Assembly (NCBI RefSeq): GCF_003334335.1
Contig: NZ_QOWQ01000187.1
Source: Escherichia coli
Lineage (GTDB): Bacteria > Pseudomonadota > Gammaproteobacteria > Enterobacterales > Enterobacteriaceae
Length of the DNA stretch: 453 nucleotides
Strand: one strand, 5' to 3'
The position numbers and the translations under genes were made by a program. The notes beneath the pieces are model-generated. The model was not told the DNA's origin and ran no database searches. It saw only the letters and a list, made by a program, of their open reading frames with translations. Of the stretch, positions 1 to 453 are shown one piece after another (position 1 is the first letter of the stretch; every line of letters starts with the position of its first letter).

Positions 1-374
1 TCACATGTGTCGAACTTAACCATGACAGCGTTCTGTACTTCAGGGGCCAGCTTGTCAAAAGTGACGTTCATCGGATCTGATTCAGTCTCAACCGGGACAA
101 AGGAAGCAGACTCCTCATCCCAGCGGTTTTCCTGCATATATTCAGCATCCCAGGAATCGAGGGCAGGGCGGGGTATACCGGGTTTATCCTCGCAAACAAG
201 AAATTTATAAGCGCAGTCCTGAGCAGCCGGATAATGTTCCAGGAATTGCCAGTGAAATTTTGCGCGGGCGCGACGTTCATCACCGGCTTCAATGGCAGTG
301 GCCACCGCAACAGCGCTATCTTCTTTTATGGCCTGTTCGTCAGGAATAGCAGCGCAAATAAAGATTTTACTCAT
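1..374 (-). CDS. Hypothetical small acidic protein; 5' end complete (ATG at 374..372), 3' end truncated by the window edge (at least 124 aa, partial codon at 2..1)
   Basis: Seen in sequence: reverse-complement frame from ATG 374..372 is open for 124 codons to position 3 with no stop, which is unlikely by chance at about 50% GC. An in-frame TAA at 383..381 just upstream makes this ATG the 5'-most possible start. GAGGT Shine-Dalgarno lies 9 nt upstream. Hand translation: MSKIFICAAIPDEQAIKEDSAVAVATAIEAGDERRARAKFHWQFLEHYPAAQDCAYKFLVCEDKPGIPRPALDSWDAEYMQENRWDEESASFVPVETESDPMNVTFDKLAPEVQNAVMVKFDTC. Codon choice (CTG, GAA, GCT, CCG, CAG) fits enteric usage. The residue mix looks like a folded protein, unlike the Ser/Leu/Arg-rich shadow frames. 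Absent from the ORF track only because the stop lies outside the window. Function not recognised. Confidence 0.82.
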   Translation of the reverse strand, partial: MSKIFICAAIPDEQAIKEDSAVAVATAIEAGDERRARAKFHWQFLEHYPAAQDCAYKFLVCEDKPGIPRPALDSWDAEYMQENRWDEESASFVPVETESDPMNVTFDKLAPEVQNAVMVKFDTC

Positions 375-383
375 TGTGTTTTA

Positions 384-388
384 ACCTC
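384..388 (-). promoter_or_regulatory. Shine-Dalgarno / ribosome-binding site for the minus-strand CDS
   Basis: Minus strand reads 5'-TGAGGTTAAAACACAATG-3'. GAGGT (complement of plus 384..388 acctc) matches the anti-SD core and sits 9 nt before the ATG at 374..372, within the normal spacing range. Confidence 0.55.
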
Positions 389-453
389 ATTACAGATTTC
401 AGGGTGAACGAATCCCTGCCATTGCTGGCATTTTTAATCCGTTGGTATGGCGT

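Follow-up and report, generated by a model that had tools for sequence, protein, structure and literature searches.

The closest described counterpart of the locus analyzed here is ydfE (b1577) of E. coli K-12, a pseudogene of the cryptic prophage Qin that follows dicB and ydfD (annotated 'lysis protein') and is interrupted by IS2E. ydfE has been placed in the DicA-repressed dicBF operon of K-12 (PMC10448788; PMC11430063). On northern blots of K-12 RNA, a transcript with its end after ydfD was detected, but none that extended to ydfE (PMC10448788). A second point of comparison is RecE, the exodeoxyribonuclease VIII of the Rac prophage, which occupies a similar place on the map of a lambda-like prophage. 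The corresponding position is held by exo/bet in phage lambda and by recET in Rac. A third is Rv2179c, a small single-domain protein that gives its name to a family of 3'-5' exoribonucleases. A search of the literature yielded no functional work on ydfE or on a prophage exonuclease of the Rv2179c-like type.

Here we analyzed a stretch of 453 nucleotides of E. coli DNA (the window). We conclude, with a probability of about 96%, that its minus strand from position 374 to 1 is the start of the large 'exonuclease' gene of lambda-like E. coli prophages, the intact form of K-12 ydfE. The gene is common, well annotated and already known; the finding is a correction of gene calling and not a discovery.

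Reading frame and identity of the gene

The ORF list that accompanied the window held only ORFs closed within it, at a threshold of at least 60 aa: 7..210 on the plus strand (67 aa, GTG start) and 68..310 on the minus strand (80 aa, TTG start). Frames exiting at an edge were omitted by the listing rule. The preliminary description, made from the letters of the window and this list, had claimed that the real gene was an unlisted frame longer than both. Such a frame is present. On the minus strand, the ATG at 374..372 opens 124 codons without a stop, and the frame leaves the window at its left edge. Translation of the reverse complement of 1..374 confirmed the peptide MSKIFICAAIPDEQAIKEDSAVAVATAIEAGDERRARAKFHWQFLEHYPAAQDCAYKFLVCEDKPGIPRPALDSWDAEYMQENRWDEESASFVPVETESDPMNVTFDKLAPEVQNAVMVKFDTC, which begins MSKIFICAAIPDEQ and ends KFDTC. 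The two remaining bases, GA, are the start of codon 125 and agree with the GAA (Glu) found after ...FDTC in relatives. Of 5,000 mononucleotide shuffles, only 11 (about 0.2%) had, in any frame, an ATG from which 124 codons or more ran to an edge of the window without a stop.

The signals that had been described upstream of this frame were found as well. An in-frame TAA at 383..381 (minus strand) closes the frame three codons 5' of the ATG (upstream translation ...G*NTMSK...), and the ATG at 374..372 is therefore the first possible start. A putative Shine-Dalgarno element, GAGGT at 388..384 (minus strand), precedes the ATG by 9 nt.

A profile search with the 124-aa translation, one of the checks that had been proposed, matched PHROG 2082 'exonuclease' with E=6.8e-91, query positions 1-124 aligning with positions 1-124 of the 823 in the profile. 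A full-length relative scored 1804 bits against the same profile. No NCBIfam family (0) was matched by the window's N-terminal peptide. The closest record, NZ_CP074853.1, encodes WP_069358385.1 (816 aa) at 2924..5374 on the minus strand of the locus taken from it (L001). Since the window corresponds to 5001..5453 of this locus, the annotated start of WP_069358385.1 falls exactly on window positions 374..372. The window thus holds the first 15% of the gene (1..374, minus strand; codons 1-124 and two bases of codon 125), an assignment that draws on the translation, the RefSeq start, PHROG 2082, conservation, the codon score and an AlphaFold model.

Over all 124 residues, beginning at residue 1, the window peptide and K-12 YdfE are 94% identical. 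In general, the start codon and the neighbours are the same in K-12 ydfE and its intact counterparts (e.g. WP_069358385.1), and protein identity over these 124 residues is 94-98%. At L001, DUF1482/dicB lies upstream of the exonuclease gene and DUF4224/integrase downstream, as is also the case in the PPompW phages. The neighbourhood, with dicB and ydfD/DUF1482 upstream and xis/int downstream, is present in L001, in the Stx2a-phage locus L002 and in K-12. In the closest relative, the stop codon of the upstream DUF1482/ydfD gene lies 17 nt past the window's right edge.

Distribution of the gene

Of 5,426 complete E. coli genomes searched by megablast with the window, 3,955 gave matches, whose identities ranged from about 89% to 98.2%. 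Among the matches listed, the CDS over the matching region was always named 'exonuclease' or '3'-5' exonuclease' by PGAP. Seventeen phage records also matched, including PPompW/Stx2a phages, mEp460, Evi, Tritos and HannyBb, and in these the gene is called 'putative exonuclease' or 'exodeoxyribonuclease VIII'. No copy identical to the window was found among the complete E. coli genomes and phage records, the best match being 98.2%. Carriers of the gene include CP-933/Sp-type and PPompW-type prophages and phages such as mEp460, and Qin holds a remnant. Among complete E. coli genomes, about 73% carry the gene.

One metagenomic contig (L084; SFGN01000167.1, 3,934 bp) was the only one with an exact match to a 120-nt piece of the window in a scan of genome contigs, being 94% identical overall. 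It has been assigned to a Lachnospiraceae metagenome-assembled genome, carries an intact exonuclease ORF of 823 aa and is probably a binning contaminant.

Coding potential of the overlapping frames

The frames of the window were compared across 83 homologous loci (80 IMG/VR contigs together with L001, L002 and L003), which reduced to 47 distinct sequences with 92-98% identity. The frame from ATG 374 (374..3, minus strand) was open in all 47 homologs, and the start codon at 372..374 was ATG in all 48 aligned sequences. Variable sites in 374..3 fell on codon positions 1, 2 and 3 of this frame in the proportion 15/10/55 (chi-square p=1.2e-10), and the distinct codon variants comprised 51 synonymous and 30 non-synonymous changes. 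The frame is under purifying selection. Codon usage was scored as a log-likelihood against out-of-frame triplets, using 35 K-12 genes. The score was +31 bits for the ATG 374 frame and negative in the other five, which ranged from -25 to -188 bits over the whole span. Thus homology, RefSeq annotation, substitution pattern and codon usage all bear out the proposal that the unlisted frame is the gene, and annotation of the window should follow it.

Both listed ORFs were tested as candidate genes in their own right. The minus-strand ORF at 68..310 is closed within the window and encodes 80 aa, which might make it the gene or a second, overlapping one. The preliminary description had named conservation of this frame with synonymous-site variation as the result that would speak for it. 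Instead, it was open in only 6 of 47 homologs; the start was TTG in 7 of 48 sequences and TCG in 39; and its variants split 5:47 between synonymous and non-synonymous. With a codon score of -33 bits and zero family matches in PHROG or NCBIfam, there is virtually no chance that 68..310 is a gene. The sole database protein containing its peptide, P0008, passes in and out of the ATG 374 frame, as expected of a frameshifted copy. The case for the plus-strand ORF at 7..210 as a real antisense gene is that it was open in 47 of 47 homologs, with GTG retained in 47 of 48 sequences. However, this ORF shares its third codon positions with the exonuclease frame, and it stays open because the exonuclease protein is conserved: a stop in the 7..210 frame requires a Tyr, His or Gln codon on the opposite strand, within certain sequence contexts. 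GC content by codon position was 0.36/0.61/0.52 in this ORF, versus 0.61/0.34/0.52 for the exonuclease frame over the same span. Its variants were evenly divided (19:19), its codon score was also -33 bits, it matched no family (zero in PHROG or NCBIfam), and a promoter scan of the window returned no promoter-like site. We consider an antisense gene at 7..210 very improbable. Upon random synonymous recoding of the exonuclease protein, stop-free runs at least as long as those observed appeared in 28-93% of trials, depending on the alternative frame (43% for a run as long as 68..310, and 28-73% for runs at least as long as 7..210). Shadow ORFs as long as 67 and 80 aa are thus to be expected from such a gene, and both listed ORFs are by-products of the exonuclease codons read in other frames. 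The Ser/Leu/Arg/Pro-rich composition that had been ascribed to them as shadow frames was also seen, the summed fraction of these residues being 0.45 for 68..310 and 0.37 for 7..210 versus 0.19-0.23 for the exonuclease frame. An ORF list that leaves out edge-exiting frames conceals the true gene in such a window and shows only its shadow ORFs.

P0008, a 100-aa entry of the representative protein library, runs in the exonuclease frame, changes to the 68..310 shadow frame (WNIIRLLRTALIN...) and then returns to the exonuclease frame. This pattern is a signature of frameshift errors or of a decayed copy, and provides an example of shadow-frame peptides entering protein databases.

Domain structure and relation to RecE

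Pfam searches of the 816-aa relative identified a single confident domain, PF16473 (Rv2179c-like 3'-5' exoribonuclease), at residues 635-806 (E=2e-65; model positions 2-177 of 177). A weak RNase_T match covered the same residues. A sequence search of the PDB with the relative likewise matched the C-terminal domain only (8kel, 'Exodeoxyribonuclease', E=5e-7) and returned no match for the N-terminus. Intact relatives, of 816-830 aa, consist of four parts: an N-terminal alpha/beta domain, a long central region partly in common with RecE, a four-cysteine motif and the C-terminal Rv2179c-like DEDDh 3'-5' exonuclease domain. The catalytic DEDDh domain is encoded entirely outside the window, about 1.5 kb past its left edge. 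The AlphaFold model of the part encoded in the window had a mean pLDDT of 80.5, with values of 82-91 over residues 1-95. Judging from this model, the window is predicted to encode a small N-terminal alpha/beta domain followed by the beginning of a helical region.

Residues 453-619 of the relative, in its central stretch, matched positions 446-603 of the NCBIfam profile for RecE (NF007259). Over the whole protein, however, the relative scored 259.7 bits against an equivalog cut-off of 1269 bits. RecE ends in a PD-(D/E)XK domain, whereas the relatives end in the DEDDh Rv2179c-like fold of PF16473; among the relatives examined with Pfam, DUF3799/PDDEXK was found only in the distant relative P0042. 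By these sequence comparisons, the full-length relative has a RecE-like central stretch but is not RecE. The RecE name 'exodeoxyribonuclease VIII' is used for the exonuclease gene in older records. The relative differs from Rv2179c itself in having about 630 additional N-terminal residues.

Intact and decayed copies

The preliminary description had advised extending the frame leftward to its stop codon. This was done in the relatives. Starting from the homologous ATG, the ORF reached 816-830 aa in 47 loci, was truncated at 274-660 aa in 11, and left the fetched DNA in 26. The copy in the window could nevertheless be a decayed pseudogene, read here in the right frame and truncated or frameshifted past the left edge, as in the Qin prophage of K-12. 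In K-12, IS2 interrupts ydfE at codon 306, the Stx2a-phage copies have a 4-bp deletion, both are annotated as pseudogenes, and the ORF stops at 274-660 aa in 11 of the 58 loci with a visible end. On the other hand, the remaining 47 of these 58 relatives are full length, unlike K-12 ydfE, and the 124 codons in the window show no defect, with two residues differing from the closest intact protein. We regard a decayed copy as unlikely.

In L002 (1688..4155), which represents the Stx2a-converting phage Stx2_14040 and its sister PPompW phages, the exonuclease gene is annotated as frameshifted by this 4-bp deletion. The deletion in these phages indicates that the gene decays repeatedly in otherwise complete prophages.

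The upstream spacer

According to the annotation of L001 and K-12, positions 375..453 (minus strand) are a non-coding spacer between the DUF1482/ydfD lysis gene and the exonuclease gene. The spacer contains 1-nt indels among relatives. GAGG of the putative Shine-Dalgarno element was kept in 26 of 27 upstream variants. The T after it (window position 384, minus strand) is polymorphic among relatives as a 1-nt indel, giving a spacing to the ATG of 9 or 8 nt, and at position -3 (window position 377) the window carries C, in contrast to the A of almost all other sequences.

Comparison of the prophage groups showed a conserved 5-bp hairpin, TGCCAGCAATGGCA, with a GCAA loop at 430..417 (minus strand). 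From this hairpin through the ATG, the sequence is conserved in all prophage groups, and upstream of it the groups diverge completely. As a consequence, many records match only positions 1..431 of the window. Positions 417..432 are thus a mosaic junction marked by the hairpin, the loop of which is GAAA in two relatives. On the plus strand, the hairpin at 417..430 was considered as a terminator and rejected: 0.5 such elements are expected by chance, and relatives do not conserve the T-run. The spacer may contain an RNA 3' end, because the K-12 transcript detected by northern blotting ends after ydfD without reaching ydfE (PMC10448788). An Rfam search of the window gave no match at E<=1, and the predicted RNA fold of 355..453 (minus strand; the spacer and the 5' end of the gene) was no better than that of shuffled sequences (z=-0.43).

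Proposed expression and function

Its position after dicB and a ydfD-type lysis gene and before xis/int makes the exonuclease gene a member of the early operon, silenced by DicA in K-12. Expression of this operon, once a DicA-type repressor is lifted, would then yield the exonuclease. The product may process DNA ends as a nuclease in phage recombination or replication, as suggested by its nuclease domain, the RecE-like centre of the protein and the place of its gene on the prophage map.

The N-terminal module in other proteins

Searching 1.84 billion representative proteins with the window's N-terminal module returned 52 matches at E<=1e-3. In the long matches, the module starts within the first 25 residues. 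One N-terminus combined with swapped C-termini is a pattern observed directly in these proteins. The 124-aa domain could accordingly serve as a dedicated 'scaffold' at the extreme N-terminus of large recombination proteins of phages with exchangeable C-terminal effectors, performing a common task; we offer this as a tentative idea that is rather doubtful at present. If it were true, the common task might be, for example, the binding of a partner or host factor.

The module heads proteins of 680-921 aa with differing C-terminal domains (P0002, P0013, P0027, P0042, P0047 and others). P0002 ends in a DEDDh Rv2179c-like domain, P0042 in the RecE-type PDDEXK/DUF3799 domain and P0027 in a PHROG 26058 domain. 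About ten module-bearing proteins have a PHROG 2489/7838 domain, possibly of the Rad52 annealing type, that contains the motif KKSLTDA.KKALS.LGFSADV and in which matches to Rad52_Rad22 are weak (E about 0.05).
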